Positions 3,710 to 15,900 of a DNA stretch of 39,214 nt are shown piece by piece. The position numbers and the translations under genes were made by a program. The notes under the pieces were generated by a model. That model made no database searches and was not told the origin of the DNA. It worked only from the letters and a program-made list of their open reading frames with translations. The stretch is from Anaerolineales bacterium. Its GTDB lineage: Bacteria > Chloroflexota > Anaerolineae > Anaerolineales > DRMV01. The DNA lies in contig JALSPT010000136.1 of NCBI GenBank assembly GCA_026985785.1, forward strand, positions 1 to 39,214. Direction: 5' to 3'. Within the stretch, counting starts at the first letter, position 1; every line of letters starts with the position of its first letter.

Positions 3710-3747
3710 AAAAAGCAGCCCCCGGTTTTCCGGGGGCTGTGCTTTTT
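3710..3747. terminator. Bidirectional intrinsic terminator between convergent SBP gene and uvrC
   Basis: AAAAA, then GCAGCCCCCGG, loop TTTT, then CCGGGGGCTGTGC, then TTTTT. An A-tract and a T-tract flank an 11-bp GC stem. Confidence 0.8.
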
Positions 3748-3756
3748 GCCGAGCGG

Positions 3757-5622
3757 TCATGCCGTCAACGCCTCTTTGATGACCTGCGCCAGCGCCTTGC
3801 TAATGCCCTTCACGGCGGCAAGCTCTTCCACGGAAGCCTGCCGGATGGCCGCCACCGAGCCGAAGCGCGCCAGCAGGGCGCGCTTGCGCTTTGGCCCCAC
3901 GCCGGGGATGGCATCCAGTGCCGAGGTCAACCCCTCGCGCACGCGGCGGCCACGGTTGGCGGTGATGGCAAAGCGGTGCGCCTCGTCGCGCACCCGCTGG
4001 AGCAGGAACAGCCCCGGATGGTTGCGCGGCAGGCGCAGCGGCTGCCGCTGGCCGGGGAGGTAAACTTCCTCCTCGCGCTTCGCCAGCCCGACGGCAAAAA
4101 TGCGCTCCCGCAGGCCGAAGCGGTCGAGCACCCGCAGCGCCCGCGCCAGTTGCCCCTTGCCGCCGTCGATGAGCAGCAGGTCGGGCAGGCGGGCGAAGGA
4201 AGGGTCGGGCGGCTTGCCGGGCTGCCCTTCGGCGGCCACTTTGCGGGCTGCCTCCCAGCGGCGGAAGCGGCGGGTGAGTACCTCTTCCATGCTGCCGAAG
4301 TCGTCGCCTGCCGCGGTGCGGATGTTGAAGCGCCGATAGTGCCCCTTGCGCGGCTGCCCCTGCTCGAACACCACCATGCTGCCCACCGCCGCGGTGCCGT
4401 GCAGGTGCGAGATGTCGTAGCCCTCGATGCGGTTGGGCGGGGCGCTCATCCCTAAGGCTTCCTGCAGCGCCGCCAGCGCCTCGGTGATTTGCCCGGCTTC
4501 GGCTTCCTTGCGGGCTTGCAGCGCGGCCAGGGTCTCGGCGGCGTTCTGGGCGGCCAGTTCCAGCAGCGCCTGCTGCTCGGCGTCGCGCGGCAGGCTGATT
4601 TCCACCGTGGCGTGGCGGCGGTCGTTCAGCCATTCCCGGATGAGTTGCGCCTCCTCCACCTCGTGGGGCAGCAGCACCCGCGGCGGCAGGTGCGCCGCCT
4701 GGCCGTAAAACTGCTTCAGGAAGGCCGCCAGCACCTGCGGGTCGGGGACGTCTTCGGTGTTTTCCAGCAAAAAATACTCCCGCCCGATGAGTTTGCCGTT
4801 GCGGATGAAGAACACCTCCACGCAGGCGTGGCGTTCGTCGCGTGCCAAGGCGAGCACATCCGAATCCAGCCCGCTTTGGGAAACCACCCGCTGGCGTTCC
4901 ACCAGTTGGTGGATGGCCTGAATCTGGTCGCGCAGGCGGGCGGCCTTTTCGAATTCCAGTTTCTCGGCGGCCTGGCGCATTTCGGCTTCCAGCCGCTGCA
5001 CCACCGGCTCGGTGCGCCCTTCGAGAAAATCGCACAGGTCGGCGATCATCTGGCGGTAGTCTTGCTGGGAAACCGCCCCCACACACGGCGCGGCGCACAG
5101 CCCCAAATCGGCGTACAGGCAGGCCCGCGGGTCGTGGCCGGTGATCGGGCGGTTGCAGGTCAAAAAGGGAAAGATCTTGCGCAACACATCCAGAGTTTGG
5201 TGCACCGCCCACATGCTGGTGTACGGACCGAAGTAGCGCGCCCCATCCTGCACCACCCGCCGGGTGACGGTCACCTTGGGGAAAGGGTCTTGCCAGTGGA
5301 CCTTGATGTAGGGATAGCGTTTGTCGTCTTTCAGGCGGACGTTGTAGCGCGGGCGGTGCTTTTTGATGAGGTTCATCTCCAAGATGAGCGCCTCGAGTTC
5401 GCTGCCCACGGTAATCCATTCGATATCGGCGATTTGCGCCACCAGTTTGCGGGTTTTGGGGTGCTTTTGGGCGCTTTTGTGGAAATAGGAACGCACCCGC
5501 CGCCGCAGGTTGACCGCCTTGCCGACGTAGATGACCTCCCCGGCGGCGTTTTTCATCAGGTAGCAGCCGGGCTTTTCGGGCAGGGTATCCAACGTGGGGC
5601 GGAGGTGGTCGGGGAGGGGCAT
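3757..5622 (-). CDS. uvrC: Excinuclease ABC subunit C
   Basis: N-terminal GIY-YIG (GCYLMKNAAGEVIYVGKAVNLRRRVRSYF), a UVR domain, and a C-terminal (HhH)2 (IPGVGPKRKRALLARFGS). No SD: CCCCCC precedes the ATG. Confidence 0.97.
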   Translation of the reverse strand: MPLPDHLRPTLDTLPEKPGCYLMKNAAGEVIYVGKAVNLRRRVRSYFHKSAQKHPKTRKLVAQIADIEWITVGSELEALILEMNLIKKHRPRYNVRLKDDKRYPYIKVHWQDPFPKVTVTRRVVQDGARYFGPYTSMWAVHQTLDVLRKIFPFLTCNRPITGHDPRACLYADLGLCAAPCVGAVSQQDYRQMIADLCDFLEGRTEPVVQRLEAEMRQAAEKLEFEKAARLRDQIQAIHQLVERQRVVSQSGLDSDVLALARDERHACVEVFFIRNGKLIGREYFLLENTEDVPDPQVLAAFLKQFYGQAAHLPPRVLLPHEVEEAQLIREWLNDRRHATVEISLPRDAEQQALLELAAQNAAETLAALQARKEAEAGQITEALAALQEALGMSAPPNRIEGYDISHLHGTAAVGSMVVFEQGQPRKGHYRRFNIRTAAGDDFGSMEEVLTRRFRRWEAARKVAAEGQPGKPPDPSFARLPDLLLIDGGKGQLARALRVLDRFGLRERIFAVGLAKREEEVYLPGQRQPLRLPRNHPGLFLLQRVRDEAHRFAITANRGRRVREGLTSALDAIPGVGPKRKRALLARFGSVAAIRQASVEELAAVKGISKALAQVIKEALTA

Positions 5623-5628
5623 GGGGGG

Positions 5629-5724
5629 AGTCGTTTAGTCGTTTAGTCGTTTAGTCGTTTGGTCGTTTAGTCGTTTAGTCGTTTGGTCGTTTGGTCGTTT
5701 GGTTGCCTGGTTGCGGGGTTGCCG
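5629..5724. repeat. 8-bp tandem array: 9 copies of RGTCGTTT plus 3 degenerate GGTTGCNN units
   Basis: Counted directly. Units start at 5629, 5637, ... 5693, then 5701, 5709, 5717. On the minus strand this reads (AAACGACY)n and ends 6 nt before the uvrC ATG. It fills almost the whole tsaC-uvrC spacer. Confidence 0.95.
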
Positions 5725-5731
5725 CCACTCC

Positions 5732-6364
5732 TCATTCGCCATTCGCCACACAGCGGGCAATATCCGCTGCGGCGATGGGCCCCGCGCGCAGGATGCGGGG
5801 CGAGGCGACGGTGCAATCCACCACGGTGGAGGGCTGGCCGCCGGGGGCGGGGCCGGCGTCAAGGATCACGGCCACAGCGTTCCCCAGTTGGGCGGCGGCC
5901 TCGGCGGCAGTGCGGGCGGGGGGCTGGCCGGAGCGGTTGGCCGAGGTCACAGCCAGGGGGCCGGTCAGACGCAGCAGCGCCAGCGCGAGGGGATGGGCGG
6001 GCATCCGCACACCCACGGTTGGGTAAGGGGAAAGGGCCGCGGGCAGATCGGGGTGTTTGGGCATCACGATGGTGAGCGCACCGGGCCAGAAACAGGCCGC
6101 CAGCCGATCCGCGCAAGGCGGCACTTCGGCGGCCACGGCAGCCAGTTGCGCGCGGTCACCCACCAGCAGGGGAATGGCCTTGCTTTCCGGGCGCGCTTTG
6201 GCGCGATAGAGGCGGGCGATGGCGTCCGCGCGGGGCAGCGCCGCCACGCCGTACACCGTGTCGGTCGGCATCACCACGAGCAGCCCGGCGCGTAGCGCCT
6301 CCGTGGCACGCACCAGCGCCCGCCGATCGGCAGCCGGGTAGATGAGGGGCGCTTTCTCCGGCAT
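5732..6364 (-). CDS. tsaC: L-threonylcarbamoyladenylate synthase, YrdC/TsaC type (Sua5/YciO/YrdC/YwlC domain only)
   Basis: 210 aa. Contains VMPTDTVYGVAA and AKARPESKAIPLLV, and TSANRSGQPP. Confidence 0.8.
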   Translation of the reverse strand: MPEKAPLIYPAADRRALVRATEALRAGLLVVMPTDTVYGVAALPRADAIARLYRAKARPESKAIPLLVGDRAQLAAVAAEVPPCADRLAACFWPGALTIVMPKHPDLPAALSPYPTVGVRMPAHPLALALLRLTGPLAVTSANRSGQPPARTAAEAAAQLGNAVAVILDAGPAPGGQPSTVVDCTVASPRILRAGPIAAADIARCVANGE

Positions 6365-7681: not shown

Positions 7682-8404
7682 TTATCGGCCCAACGCCAGG
7701 CGCAGGATGTTGCGCTCCGGCAGGCCATATTGCCGCATACGCGCTTGCACGGCGGAAACATCGTAGGCCACGCGTCGCCATTCCCAGGTGTGGGCGACGG
7801 TGTCGTAGAAGGCGTAGGCGGCACGCGGATTGCCGTCGCGCGGCTGCCCCACCGAGCCGGGGTTGAGGATGGCGCGCGGGGTCAACGTCCACACTTCCCC
7901 ACCGCGCGGCGCTCGGTCGGAGACCACGCCATCCTCCTCTTGCCACCAGGCTGGATGGTGGGTGTGCCCCACAAAGCAGAAATCGGTGGGGAGGACGGCA
8001 AAGGCATCGGCTGCCTCTTCGCTGGTGAGCAGATACTCGGTGATGGGGGCGCGTGGGCTGCCGTGAAGCAGGGTGACGTCGTCGTGCTGGCGAATTTCTG
8101 GGAGTTGGGAAAGGAACGCCAGGTTCTCCGGCGAGAGTTGCTCGCGCGTCCATTGGACACCGCGCCGTGCGGCGCGATTGAACCATCCCAACGGCATCGC
8201 GCCAATCACCGCCGCATCGTGGTTGCCTAATACCGCGGTCAGATTGGGCAGGGTGCGTATCCGCTCGACGCACTCGTTGGGGTCAGGGCCGTAACCTACC
8301 AGGTCGCCGAGGAACCAGTAAGCCTCTACCGCACCGGCATCTTGCAGCACGGCTTCCAGGGCGGCGAGGTTGGCATGAATATCAGAGAAAACCAGAACAC
8401 GCAT
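7682..8404 (-). CDS. Metallophosphoesterase family protein
   Basis: Internal ATG at 8404 (MRVLVFSDIHAN). Motifs DIHAN, GDLVGYGP, GNHD, GHTH. The 83-codon R/G-rich upstream extension of the ORF is rejected. Confidence 0.8.
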   Translation of the reverse strand: MRVLVFSDIHANLAALEAVLQDAGAVEAYWFLGDLVGYGPDPNECVERIRTLPNLTAVLGNHDAAVIGAMPLGWFNRAARRGVQWTREQLSPENLAFLSQLPEIRQHDDVTLLHGSPRAPITEYLLTSEEAADAFAVLPTDFCFVGHTHHPAWWQEEDGVVSDRAPRGGEVWTLTPRAILNPGSVGQPRDGNPRAAYAFYDTVAHTWEWRRVAYDVSAVQARMRQYGLPERNILRLALGR

Positions 8405-8409
8405 GGCAT

Positions 8410-8817
8410 TTACTCCTCGCGCGGCAGGTCGTCGGGTTGGAAAGCCGCGGGAAGCAGATCGGCCAGCGTGGTTTCCAAGACCACCCGCCCGGCGCGATCG
8501 GCGACGACCACTTCCAGGTCGAGGCCAAATTCGGCCAGCACCTGGCGGCAGGCGCCACACGGCGCGCCGCCGTTTTCGGTAACCACTGCAATCGCGGCGA
8601 AGGAGCGTTCGCCTTCCGAAACCGCTTTGAACACGGCCACCCGCTCGGCGCACATGCCGGAGGGGAAAGCGGCGTTTTCTACGTTGACGCCGGTGTACAC
8701 TTTACCCGTTCGGGTGAGCAAGGCCGCGCCTACGGAGTAGTGCGAATACGGGGCATACGCATGGGCACGGGCCGCGGTGGCCGCAGCGATCAATCGTTGG
8801 CGTGTTTGGGTATCCAT
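8410..8817 (-). CDS. cdd: Cytidine deaminase
   Basis: ATG at 8817. Zinc motifs CAERVA and PCGACRQ. 135 aa. Confidence 0.9.
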   Translation of the reverse strand: MDTQTRQRLIAAATAARAHAYAPYSHYSVGAALLTRTGKVYTGVNVENAAFPSGMCAERVAVFKAVSEGERSFAAIAVVTENGGAPCGACRQVLAEFGLDLEVVVADRAGRVVLETTLADLLPAAFQPDDLPREE

Positions 8818-8852
8818 GAAGCCCTTCCTGAGAAGAACGACCGGGGGCGGCT

Positions 8853-10157
8853 TTACGCCGCCTTTTCTCCGGCGGAGGATGGCGGTTGCTCTGCCTCTGT
8901 CGAGGGTTGCTCGCTTTCGGCGGGCAGGCGGCGGACATGCACCCACAGGATGCGCCGCTGCTCTACTTTGCGGATGGTGAAAAGGAAATCGCCAATGCGG
9001 ACGCTTTCTCCTTCCGCAGGCATGTGGCCGAGGACGCTGAACAACAGGCCGCCGAGGGTGTCCACCTCATCGGTGGAGAGGTCGGTGTGCAGGTTTTCGT
9101 TGAGGTCATCCAGGTCCGCGCGCCCGCTGACAAGGTACTCATTGTCGTTCAGAGCACGAATTTCCGTGACTTCCTTGCCCAGGTCGTACTCATCCTGAAT
9201 CTCGCCGATGATTTCCTCGACGATGTCTTCCAGCGTCACCAACCCCGCGATGCCGCCGTATTCGTCCACCACCAACGCCATGTGCATCCGGCGGCGTTGC
9301 ATCTCGGCCAGCAGTTCGTCCACCTTTTTGGCTTCAGGCACGAAATAGGCCTCGCGCACCAGTTGGCGCAGGGTGCGCTTTTCCTCCAAACCAGCCCGCC
9401 AGATGGGCAACAGGTCTTTGGCGTACACCAGGCCGACGACGTGGTCGATTTTCCCCTCGTAAACCGGCAGGCGGGAAAAGCCGGTCTCGATGAAGATGTC
9501 GGTGGCGGCGTGCAGGGGGGTGTTGATTTCCACGGTCACCATGTCGATGCGGGGCACCATGATCTCGCGCACCAGGGTGTCGCCAAAGCGCACAATGGAG
9601 CGCAGCATGGCGCGCTCTTCCTGCTCCAGGCGGCCTTCTTGCAAATTGGCTTGGAGGATGGCTTGAAAGGTCTCGTCGTTGAGCAGCCAATCGGCTTCAC
9701 CGGGGCTGCTTAACCACCGCTGGAAGGGCGCAGCAAGGCGCACCAGGCGCTCAGCCCACGTCACAGCCCAGCGCACCGCGGCAGGTTTTCCCCGCAGCGC
9801 CGTATCCAGGAGCCACTCCGCCGCGCCCAGGATTACCGCGACGCCCACCAACACGCCGAGAAGGTCGCCCACTGGCAGCGGCCTTTTTCCCCCTACCTGT
9901 TGTAAAGCCAGGTAAAAGGCGCCCGCGGCAACGAAGAAGTGCGCGCCCAGCATCCCCGTCTGCACCAGCAAGCGCAAAGGGTCGCGCTGGCGAAGCAGGG
10001 TGATCAGCCGATGGAAAACTTCCCCATCGGTTTCGCGCAAACGGGTCAGGTCTTTGAGCGAAAGGCGCAATACACAAGCCCGCACGGCAACCAGCCACAA
10101 ATCTATCATTACCAGGCCGGCCACCGCGTACATGACCCATAAACTGTCTTCGTCCAT
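8853..10157 (-). CDS. HlyC/CorC family transporter (DUF21-CBS pair-CorC_HlyC)
   Basis: N-terminal TM DUF21 region, a CBS pair (IMVPRIDMVTV, FSRLPVY) and a C-terminal transporter-associated domain (GDFLFTIRKVEQRRI). Confidence 0.85.
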   Translation of the reverse strand: MDEDSLWVMYAVAGLVMIDLWLVAVRACVLRLSLKDLTRLRETDGEVFHRLITLLRQRDPLRLLVQTGMLGAHFFVAAGAFYLALQQVGGKRPLPVGDLLGVLVGVAVILGAAEWLLDTALRGKPAAVRWAVTWAERLVRLAAPFQRWLSSPGEADWLLNDETFQAILQANLQEGRLEQEERAMLRSIVRFGDTLVREIMVPRIDMVTVEINTPLHAATDIFIETGFSRLPVYEGKIDHVVGLVYAKDLLPIWRAGLEEKRTLRQLVREAYFVPEAKKVDELLAEMQRRRMHMALVVDEYGGIAGLVTLEDIVEEIIGEIQDEYDLGKEVTEIRALNDNEYLVSGRADLDDLNENLHTDLSTDEVDTLGGLLFSVLGHMPAEGESVRIGDFLFTIRKVEQRRILWVHVRRLPAESEQPSTEAEQPPSSAGEKAA

Positions 10158-11548: not shown

Positions 11549-11580
11549 TAGTCAGGTAGTCGGATAGTCGTTTAGTCGGG
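11549..11580. repeat. Four TAGTC motifs at exact 8-nt period (TAGTCAGG TAGTCGGA TAGTCGTT TAGTCGGG)
   Basis: TAGTC occurs at 11549, 11557, 11565 and 11573. The minus strand reads CCCGACTA AACGACTA TCCGACTA CCTGACTA immediately 5' of the glmU SD. The unit AACGACTA is shared with the uvrC array. Confidence 0.85.
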
Positions 11581-12957: not shown

Positions 12958-15900
12958 GGGGTGGGGGTGGGGGTGGGGGTGAGCGTGGGAGGCGCGGTGG
13001 GCGATGGGGTAGGCGTGAGGCTCGGCATGGGCGTGAGGGTGGCGGTAGGCGTCGCCGTGGCCGTGGATGTAGGCGTCGGTGTGGAAGTCGGGGTAGCCGT
13101 GGGCGTGGGCGTCGGTGTGGAAGTCGAGGTAGCCGTGGGCGTGGGCGTCGCTGTGGGGGTGGGCGTCGGCAGGCTCAGATGGACGCGAATCTGGCGGATG
13201 GCGTAGTTTAGGTCGCCCTGGGTGCTGTGCATGTACATGCGCAGGATGACATCGCCCGGCATATGCTCCCAATCCCACATGTCAGGAATGTTCCAGGTGG
13301 CCACTTTGTCGGCTTTGGGCACGGGCTGGTCGCTGAAATAAATGCGGTGCCAGTGCTTTTCGTCGGGCGTGCGGGCTTCGATGCGGAAATCCTTGAAATA
13401 CTTGGTGGCGTCGGCCTGGACGACCATGTCCACTTCGGGCTCCGTGATCGTGCTGCCGTCGTGGGGGAAGACGAAGGCCAGCAGAGGGCGAGGGTCGGAG
13501 GCGGTGCATTGACGGTCGGGGGTGAAAATGACCGGGTTTTTGAAGCCCATCTTGTCGGCCCAGGCGCGCCCGGCTTTGCTGTGGCGCAACCACTTGCGCG
13601 CCCAAGGGTCGCTGACGTTGAGCGTGAGCCATTCGGTGGCGAACAGCCCTTTGGGATTGCAGGCTTTGGACTGGCCAAGTTGCGTCCAGGTGTCGATATG
13701 GGCGGGCTTCCAGAGATCGTCGGAAGGCGGCAACGGCGGTTGGTCGTAAGCGAAGATCTCGGTGCGCTGTTTGGGGCACCATTGGGAGGGCAAAGTGCCG
13801 GAAACCGCGCAGATGGTGTATTCCACGATGCCCGGCGGGCGCACGAAGGGGGTGGGGTGGCTGTGGGTGAGGTAGTGTTCGGCGTATTGCATGAAGGACG
13901 ACCAGATGGGGGCCGCACCGGTCAGGCCGGTGCTGTTGATCATCGGGCTGTTGTCGGCGTTGCCCACCCACACGCCCACCGCGATGTCGGGGGTGTAGCC
14001 CATCGTCCAGTTGTCACGGAAATCGTTGGTGGTGCCGGTCTTGGCCGCCGCGGGGAAGGGCAGGTGCAACGGCGAGTTGAGGCCGAATTCCCAGGCGCGC
14101 GCCTGGTTGTCGGAAAGGATGGAAGTGATGAGGTACGCGTGCTCAGGCCGCACCACTTGCACCCCCGCGGGCGGGGTGTATTCGTACACCGTCTTGCCGC
14201 GGTAATCCACGATGCGGGTGATGGCCACCGGCGGGACGCGCTTGCCGCCGTTGGCCAACACGGCATAGGCCGCGGTGTGCTCCAGCAGGGTGACCTCGCC
14301 GCCGCCTAAGGTGAGCGAAAGGCCGTAGTCCTTGCGGGTCAGGGTGGTGATGCCCAGCCGTTCGGCCATGCCGACCAGCCCGTCTTTCTGTGGGGTTTTG
14401 GGGTCGTCGTAGATGCCGACGAATTGCAAAGCCTTGACGGCGGGGATGTTGAACGAATTGGCCAGCGCGGTGCGGACGGTGACCGGCCCGTGGAAGAGGT
14501 GGTCGTAGTTCACCGGTTTGTAGGGCGGGCGGGGGTCGTTGGGGTTGCCGGAGGGCGGGAATTCGCTCGGCACGTCCCAAATCAGGGTGGCGGGCGTCCA
14601 GCCTTTTTCGAAGGCCGCGAGGTAAGTGTAGGGCTTGATGGACGAACCGGGTTGCCGCGGTGCTATGGCCATGTTGACCTGCCCGTGGATGGCTTCGTCG
14701 TAGAAATCTGCCGAGCCCACCATCGCCAAGATCTCGCCCGTGGTGGGGCGGATGGCCACCAGCGCGCCGTCGGTGACATGCTTCGCCGCCAGCGCCTTCA
14801 CCTGTTGGCCGACGATTTCCTGCGCTTTGGTCTGCAAGGTGGGGTCGAGGGTGGTGTAAACCGTAAAGCCGGAGCGGTAGATGGTCTGCGGGTCGTAGCG
14901 CTTTTCCAGCAGGGAGCGGATGTAGTTCACCCAATGGGGAAAACGTATTGGCACGCGCGGCGGCGGGAACTTGTAGTTTTCCATCTCGTCCCACGCGTGC
15001 ACGATGTCGTCTTGCCCCACGCAGATGGGATGGATGCTGTTGCTCACGGTGATGCAGCCCTGCTCCTGGCTGGTCTGGTACATCAGCGCCAACACCTGCT
15101 TGTAGCGCCGCATGGCGGCGGCGCGGTTGGTGTAGGGGTCGTACACCGCGGGCGCCTGCGGCAGGCCGGCCAGAAAAGCGGCTTGGGGGAGAGTCAGCTT
15201 GTCGGCGGTGGTGTGGAAGTAAGTTTCCGCCGCGGCTTCGACACCGTAGGCCAGGTTGCCGTAATACACCTCGTTGAGATACAGTTCCAGGATTTCGTCT
15301 TTGGAATAGCGGCGGGTGATTTCCATCGCCAAGATGGCTTCCCGCAGTTTGCGGCTGTAGGTGCGTTGTGCCCGTTCCTGTGGGGAAAGCAGCAGCGCGC
15401 GAGCGAGTTGCTGGGTGATGGTCGAAGCGCCGGAGACCACCTCGCCGGTGGTGTAATTTTGCCAGAAGGCGCGTGCAATGGCCCAGAAATCGACGCCGGG
15501 GTGTTCGTAGAAGTGCTTGTCTTCGGTGGCCAAGGTGGCCGCGACCATGTAGGGCGAGATTTTGCTCAGCGGGACGTACGTGCGCCGCCCGGCGTGGGGG
15601 TCGAGGATTTCGTAGAGCACGTTGCCGTTGCGGTCGAGGATGCGAGTGGTTTCGAAATGAGCGGCGCGGTTCTTCAAGTCGTCCACGTTGGGCAGTGTGG
15701 CGGCGATGCGGTAGTATTTGTACACCCCAAAGCCAGCGAGGGCGCTGGCGACCAAGATCAGCAGGACAGCGATTACCAGGACAAAGCGCCACGCACAGCC
15801 GAGGGAACGGCGCCAGAAAGGCATTCCTGGCGGCGCGGGCGGGGGAGCGCTGTCGCGAGGCGGGGTGGGAGGGATTGGAGGGCGCGGCGTGGTGCCCGAG

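Follow-up and report, generated by a model that had tools for sequence, protein, structure and literature searches.

Long simple-sequence repeats, which consist of 5-11-nt units with heptamers common among them and are abundant in scattered lineages (Mrazek, Guo & Shah 2007, summarised in PMC4679880), seem, going by that summary, to constitute a statistical class rather than a functional family, the heptamer-rich ones being attributed there to polymerase slippage. In marine Beggiatoaceae, TAACTGA heptamers end just before start codons, and the roles discussed for them range over S1, Csp and Csr to that of simply irrelevant sequence (MacGregor 2015, PMC4679880), while filamentous cyanobacteria carry short tandemly repeated repetitive (STRR) heptamers, at least as these are portrayed in PMC2670836. 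Here, a repeat-filled spacer between tsaC and uvrC of an Anaerolineales metagenome-assembled genome (G000; 1.82 Mb in 261 contigs, 62.5% GC) is set against these systems, the window being the whole 39,214-nt stretch of DNA that was analysed, which is contig C136 of that genome.

With the long simple-sequence repeats, as far as their summary characterizes them, the tsaC-uvrC array shares a head-to-tail unit of 5-11 nt that extends beyond chance length, and its surroundings agree as well, as the genome contains many arrays with periods 7 and 8 over-represented, and the array length changes by whole units between close relatives. The stop-to-start placement and the G-rich-then-C-rich polarity found here, however, apparently went unreported in the Mrazek survey, in so far as PMC4679880 represents it.

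Like the TAACTGA repeats, the arrays in question are short, intergenic, many per genome and forward-oriented, and end a few nucleotides before starts (4 nt from the ATG at uvrC, a median of 15 nt ahead of the downstream start genome-wide); their units are G-poor and without SD character, the downstream genes are unrelated to one another and include essential ones, the distribution among relatives is patchy, and function is unproven in both cases. They differ in that the unit here is 8 nt long (CGACYANN in general, ACGACYAA at uvrC) instead of a single 7-nt word, that many unit families coexist, that copies number ~9-14 versus 2-6, and that the host phylum is Chloroflexota whereas the TAACTGA hosts are Beggiatoaceae. 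There is, furthermore, no SD depletion here, even though uvrC itself lacks an SD: under a loose criterion, 43% of the array-preceded genes and 47% of the others have one (p 0.65), compared with ~10% vs 25% in BOGUAY (PMC4679880).

STRR and the present arrays are alike in being short tandem units in intergenic DNA of a filamentous lineage and in having, as far as the account in PMC2670836 goes, no known function; the inverted hairpin-forming pairs of STRR also have counterparts in G000, but on other contigs (C45, C248, C181). An assignment of the tsaC-uvrC array to STRR was rejected: its unit is 8 nt rather than 7 bp, with only the flanking GGCGAAT tract being heptameric, and is unrelated to the STRR words given in that source; the octamers are direct and form no hairpin, being unpaired in the centroid and nearly unpaired in the MFE fold of a 188-nt region round the spacer that folds no better than its shuffles (z +0.62); and the phylum differs, the nearest uvrC loci being those of Anaerolineales/Chloroflexota MAGs and not of cyanobacteria. 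The unit is also different from GAACGTGC-like and GACA-type units, and a literature search combining Anaerolineae/Chloroflexi with tandem or heptamer repeats found no paper. The first-pass annotation of this DNA, which was made from the sequence alone, knew of no described element with this unit, and this stands for the unit itself, (CGACUAAA)n or ACGACYAA, but does not extend to the repeat class, which is already described (long simple-sequence repeats, STRR and TAACTGA, PMC4679880, to the extent that the sources above cover them).

Anatomy of the tsaC-uvrC spacer and its surroundings

All parts of the spacer are read along the minus strand, which is the sense strand here (Table 1), and its twelve octamers are in phase and without an SD. 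Their order from 5722 to 5627 is GCAACCCC, GCAACCAG, GCAACCAA, ACGACCAA twice, ACGACTAA twice, ACGACCAA once more, ACGACTAA three times and finally ACGACTCC, the unit drifting stepwise within the array from GCAACCAA through ACGACCAA to ACGACTAA. TRF reports period 8 with 9.0 copies and 95% matches at 5629-5700 (score 123), together with three degenerate copies at 5700-5723, which agrees with the nine near-identical and three degenerate 8-bp units previously counted in this 109-nt spacer by the first-pass annotation, and the two-unit pattern has 9 matches in the window versus 0.07 expected from shuffles. The same annotation was also right about the uvrC leader lacking an SD, none of GGAG, GAGG and AGGA being present before the ATG. 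No TG dinucleotide, and hence no start codon, is present in the G-poor units, and the repeat tract begins within tsaC rather than after its stop, the GGCGAAT heptamers found there being the stop-proximal, G-rich portion of a composite repeat. A promoter/terminator scan found no promoter-like or terminator-like site in the spacer, and Rfam at a permissive threshold gave no match within it, with a chance-level isrD match (E 0.6) falling in uvrC on the other strand.

Table 1. Features of the window discussed in the text, with coordinates in window positions
Feature	Coordinates	Strand	Remarks
tsaC, Sua5/YrdC family, upstream cistron	5732-6364	-	PF01300, E 6.8e-53
GGCGAAT heptamers, 2.3 copies	5733-5748	-	encode the C-terminal residues of TsaC and the TGA stop
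tsaC stop TGA	5734-5732	-	
tsaC-uvrC spacer, 109 nt	5623-5731	-	
Linker GGAGTGGCG, 9 nt, non-repeat, tsaC stop to octamers	5731-5723	-	holds the sole start-like codon of the spacer (GTG)
Twelve octamers in an unbroken 8-nt register	5722-5627	-	GCAACCNN three times, then ACGACYAA/ACGACTCC nine times
CCCC run without SD	5626-5623	-	abuts the uvrC ATG (5622)
uvrC, downstream cistron, ATG start without SD	3757-5622	-	UvrC domains, E 2e-55
Intrinsic-terminator-like hairpin, the first after uvrC	3716-3739	-	promoter/terminator scan
Second array, ~4 degenerate CGACTANN units	11549-11579	-	cation-efflux gene to glmU
Canonical SD AGGAG	11545-11541	-	between the second array and glmU
His-rich N-terminal tract of the cation-efflux protein	12958-13168	-	HPHPHPHP, DAHAHGY repeats
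Metallophosphoesterase ORF	7682-8653	-	overlaps the next entry
Other-frame ORF	8410-8946	-	a piece of it was picked by our own gene caller
Region covered by the two overlapping ORFs	7682-8946	-	may be a frameshift or merely overlapping ORF calls

The product of uvrC comprises GIY-YIG, UVR, two RNase-H-like and HhH domains. An exact search with the TsaC protein matched no record, so that there was no same-strain assembly to compare. The unit had also been claimed to recur upstream of glmU, which it does, in the form of four degenerate CGACTANN units that begin in the last codons of the cation-efflux gene, the TAA stop of which lies inside the first unit; missing from that earlier picture, however, was the canonical SD with which glmU is provided after its array. 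As a side observation, the His-rich tract of the cation-efflux protein is itself encoded by DNA repeats of 6, 18 and 36 nt.

Placement in the genome and turnover among relatives

Whole-genome TRF yields 109 merged period-7/8 arrays of at least 3 copies in the 1.82 Mb, 91 of which are left after dropping units that are almost purely G/C, and at 4 or more copies it is periods 7 and 8 that lead, with 31 and 43 TRF rows, respectively. Written in their G-poor form, the recurrent octamers are CGACTANN/CGACCANN, AACCAAGT/AACCAGGC and AACGAAGT, and the recurrent heptamers are CGCCATT, CCTCATT, CGCAATT, CCCAGTA and CCCTAAT. This genome-wide population of 7-/8-nt arrays, which is typical of Anaerolineales, includes the tsaC-uvrC spacer as one of its loci.

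Judged against the gene calls of our own crude codon-usage caller (87% coding, 13% non-coding), the arrays are mostly intergenic (70/91, p 4e-44), and those that could be classified lie nearly always between co-directional genes (52 of the 56). They start a median of 2 nt past the upstream stop, often providing that very stop, and account for 70% of the spacer. The first-pass annotation had proposed a family of leader elements on the basis of the uvrC and glmU arrays, and the dispersal did hold, as did a bias in how the arrays are oriented with respect to the gene downstream, but the family turned out to be neither uvrC- nor leader-specific, consisting as it does of ~91 stop-to-start arrays. 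Long heptamer arrays were also seen within called coding regions (C40:6872-7248 and C163:4594-4702). Inverted array pairs are present in other spacers of the genome (C45:2568-2684, C248:2427-2563, C181:21944-22025, C101:9774-9885 and C245:3924-4056); such pairs would give long RNA hairpins, in which the first arm is invariably the G-rich one, the C-rich arm adjoining the downstream start. Of the 91 arrays, ten are located no more than 100 nt from the end of a contig, e.g., C88:1-46, C166:2-51, C191:7325-7348 and C193:1942-1982, which is about fourfold more than the expected 2.9% (p 3e-4) and indicates that the assembly breaks at arrays and that the array count is a lower bound.

Three congeners (G006, G004 and G008) have tsaC and uvrC adjacent, the locus of G004 being available as a metagenome contig as well. 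In G006 and G004 the spacer is made up of 6-8 heptamers (AATTGCG/AATGGCG/AATGAAG) followed by 5-6 octamers (CGACTAAG/CGACCACC/TGACTATC), with TTCCCCCC or TTTCCCCC, similar to the CCCC of the window, preceding the uvrC ATG, and the two spacers are distinguished by one 14-nt (2 x 7) and one 8-nt indel; that of G008 is 12 nt long and array-free. The C-terminus of TsaC is also repeat-encoded in G006 and G004 (…CVENCE*), whereas that of the array-free G008 ends otherwise. The efflux-glmU spacer behaves similarly, having ~4 units in G000, ~5 in G005, ~8 in G004, ~10 in G006 and none in G008, with the SD before glmU being kept in every congener compared, array or none. Copy number at orthologous sites thus ranges from 0 to ~12 units, and turnover is fast.

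Whole-unit indels between congeners and the slippage-prone nature of the array are what a phase-variable switch, in which altered copy number would turn uvrC expression on or off, has in its favor. Promoter hexamers, however, neither flank nor span the array, an 8-nt indel in intergenic DNA leaves the reading frames intact, the genes concerned are housekeeping rather than surface or contingency genes, and dozens of like arrays stand ahead of unrelated genes. The repeat thus lies neither in an ORF nor between promoter elements, as repeats involved in phase variation do, and the switch-like role suggested by the first-pass annotation was given up as extremely improbable.

Three consecutive CGACYANN units are found in G000 and G004-G007 and marginally in G001, and no such arrays were found in G002, G003 and G008, whereas AACSANNY arrays occur in 8/8 congeners. 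Over the order, CGACYANN arrays were detected in 45/201 sampled genomes, patchily and scattered over several families, while the reversed-pattern control for this search was almost always zero. The repertoire of units is a property of the whole genome, unit types being present or absent together across its loci; such genome-wide appearance or loss of a unit type is left unexplained by locus-by-locus slippage and is the only thread that might point toward something new. It might be read as the signature of a binding platform, i.e., of YRACYANN octamers serving as cis-sites for a repeat-reading RNA- or single-strand-binding protein within a post-transcriptional network, for which the CGACYA core common to arrays at many loci (with positions 7-8 variable), the patchy occurrence over the order, the concerted presence or absence across the loci of one genome and the precedent of a similar hypothesis for the Beggiatoaceae TAACTGA repeats (PMC4679880) could be cited. 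No candidate protein was identified, however, the unit drifts even within one array (GCAACC to ACGACC to ACGACT), orthologous sites may have anything from no copies to the maximum given above, and the downstream genes, such as uvrC and glmU, are unrelated housekeeping genes; the unit logo, moreover, was filtered on the core and is hence a biased test that provides no evidence for constraint. A platform of this sort is, in our estimation, quite improbable.

Polarity, RNA structure and the uvrC start

A simple per-array count of orientation reveals a weak bias (33 vs 17, p 0.03). The arrays were then split by their position in the spacer, as G-rich heptamers adjoin the stops and an inverted pair looks alike on both strands. 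With this split, 26 spacers versus 8 have a start-proximal array in which C exceeds G on the sense strand (p 0.003). Spacers with at least two arrays run from G-rich to C-rich without exception (8/8), and the median relative position within the spacer in G000 is 0.48 for C-rich arrays versus 0.21, that is, near the stop, for G-rich ones (p 0.014). The corresponding medians in G067, a genome from another family that is rich in CGACYANN arrays and of which 356 kb were examined, are 0.59 and 0.15 (p 0.0099), and the composite order recurs there, the stop being followed by AATG-type heptamers, these by C-rich heptamers, and these in turn by (C/A)GACYANN octamers that extend to the ATG. Individual G067 loci with the composite order, GAATG-type heptamers first, are L202:799-1076, L207:3047-3225 and L235:4754-4999. 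A mild C>G bias of the sense strand is also seen in array-free spacers (113 vs 61), and the polarity may therefore be, in part, a general property of the strand.

Start regions (-40..+20) that follow arrays have a median of -5.0 kcal/mol, as opposed to -12.4 kcal/mol for those following other leaders that are 40 nt or longer (p 4e-12). For uvrC, 60 nt of the leader together with 30 coding nucleotides give 0.0 kcal/mol in the native state and -22.9 kcal/mol with the leader reverse-complemented, because the then G/T-rich leader pairs with the C-rich gene start. Flipping made 25/25 leaders more structured (medians of -6.0 kcal/mol native and -24.9 kcal/mol flipped), and the medians in G067 were -6.4 and -20.3 kcal/mol, respectively. 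Out of the four candidate roles listed in the first-pass annotation, the unstructured C/A-rich leader is the one that fits these data.

The same lack of structure would suit Rho loading, whereby an untranslated, unstructured spacer with C in excess of G would couple uvrC transcription to the speed of ribosome initiation at uvrC. A rut site calls for some 70-80 nt or more of untranslated, unstructured RNA that is rich in C and poor in G. The genome encodes Rho, and the spacer is 109 nt long and unpaired, with C making up 36% and G 17%; the array proper, however, is rich in A (49%, versus 31% C), YC dinucleotides number only 14 over the 109 nt of the spacer, the same arrays stand ahead of essential genes such as glmU within long runs of genes, a setting in which polarity would carry a cost, and G008 does without an array at both the uvrC and glmU loci. 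We regard a role in Rho loading as very improbable.

As for initiation at uvrC, 152 of 157 related Anaerolineales loci have no SD before this gene, an SD-like motif being present in only 5, and in 86 of the 157 the ATG lies 6-9 nt beyond the end of a -10 box, which in most cases reads TGnTAAAAT, TATAAT or TACAAT. A -10 box placed just ahead of the start is the signature of leaderless genes (Zheng et al., PMC3160421), and uvrC therefore looks, from its upstream sequences, ancestrally leaderless in Anaerolineales. Among the species of the genus to which the window belongs, only G005 retains the -10/leaderless arrangement, three have a repeat spacer, G001 and G003 have a C-rich non-repeat leader of ~80 nt, and G008 has only its 12-nt tsaC junction; there is no -10 box before the uvrC ATG of the window. 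A link between the array and the missing SD was considered and rejected in view of the near-equal SD frequencies of array-preceded and other genes, and the missing SD at uvrC is unrelated to the array.

These observations bear on a rival reading, rather unlikely in our view, in which the array is a translation spacer kept by selection because its unstructured RNA gives ribosomes or protein S1 a standby platform, so that the SD-less uvrC could be initiated from within a polycistronic mRNA once the lineage had lost the ancestral leaderless promoter. The seemingly leaderless ancestry, with an arrangement mostly lost in the genus and absent in the window, the contrast between the native and flipped uvrC leaders, the far lower structure of array-preceded starts than of other starts, and the start codons abutted by C-rich arrays in two families all speak for such a selected spacer. 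Against it are the array-free junction of G008, the non-repeat C-rich leaders in G001 and G003, SDs that are equally frequent whether or not an array precedes the gene, the canonical SD that follows the glmU array and is retained in all congeners, and the fact that neither the unit nor its copy number is conserved.

Origin and significance of the arrays

Taken as one locus among many, the tsaC-uvrC array is probably the product of slippage in an intercistronic gap that seems to be transcribed, having no uvrC-specific function and being retained in the orientation that leaves the start open. Arrays would grow, shrink and switch unit through replication slippage, and would come to fill stop-to-start gaps between co-directional genes, gaps that are probably transcribed and remain untranslated; at this locus, co-transcription with tsaC is presumed, within a long minus-strand gene run ending at the terminator-like hairpin after uvrC. 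The array would then persist by virtue of a tolerated orientation, in which the mRNA is A/C-rich, G-poor, devoid of AUG, GUG and UUG and free of secondary structure, whereas an array turned the other way would form base pairs with the C-rich beginning of the coding region and, presumably, be removed by selection. Since the array is G-poor and unstructured, the SD-less uvrC start should be accessible in open RNA, which would make SD-independent initiation possible; such initiation is allowed by a local lack of structure (Scharff et al., as cited in PMC5397173). The array itself would thereby be a passive spacer, harmless or mildly helpful.

What goes against passive slippage being the whole account is the recurrence of a YRACYA core with two variable positions at many loci, in 45/201 genomes and in several families, which is not obviously predicted by purely random slippage, and the fixed order of G-rich AATG-type heptamers and then C-rich octamers in a second family hints at more than passive tolerance. 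It is therefore conceivable, albeit improbable, that the YRACYANN octamers and AATG-type heptamers are cis-elements of a lineage-wide trans-acting system, which could be a protein that reads the repeats by binding RNA or ssDNA, or else an activity dedicated to seeding repeats. Were this true, it would account for the recurrence of the core in 45/201 genomes over several families of Anaerolineales, for the concerted presence or absence of a unit type across the loci of one genome, and for the order of G-rich heptamers post-stop and C-rich octamers pre-start being fixed in two families.

For the annotation of Anaerolineales genomes, our results mean that a stop-to-start array is no reason to annotate a gene-specific regulator, a riboswitch-like leader or a phase switch, and that array counts based on MAGs are lower bounds, as arrays break assemblies. 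For the biology of these bacteria, the polarity rule amounts to G-poor mRNA being placed beside start codons, with initiation regions left almost structure-free, and this offers a simple and testable reason why arrays are tolerated in operons and why an SD is dispensable for roughly half of these genes.
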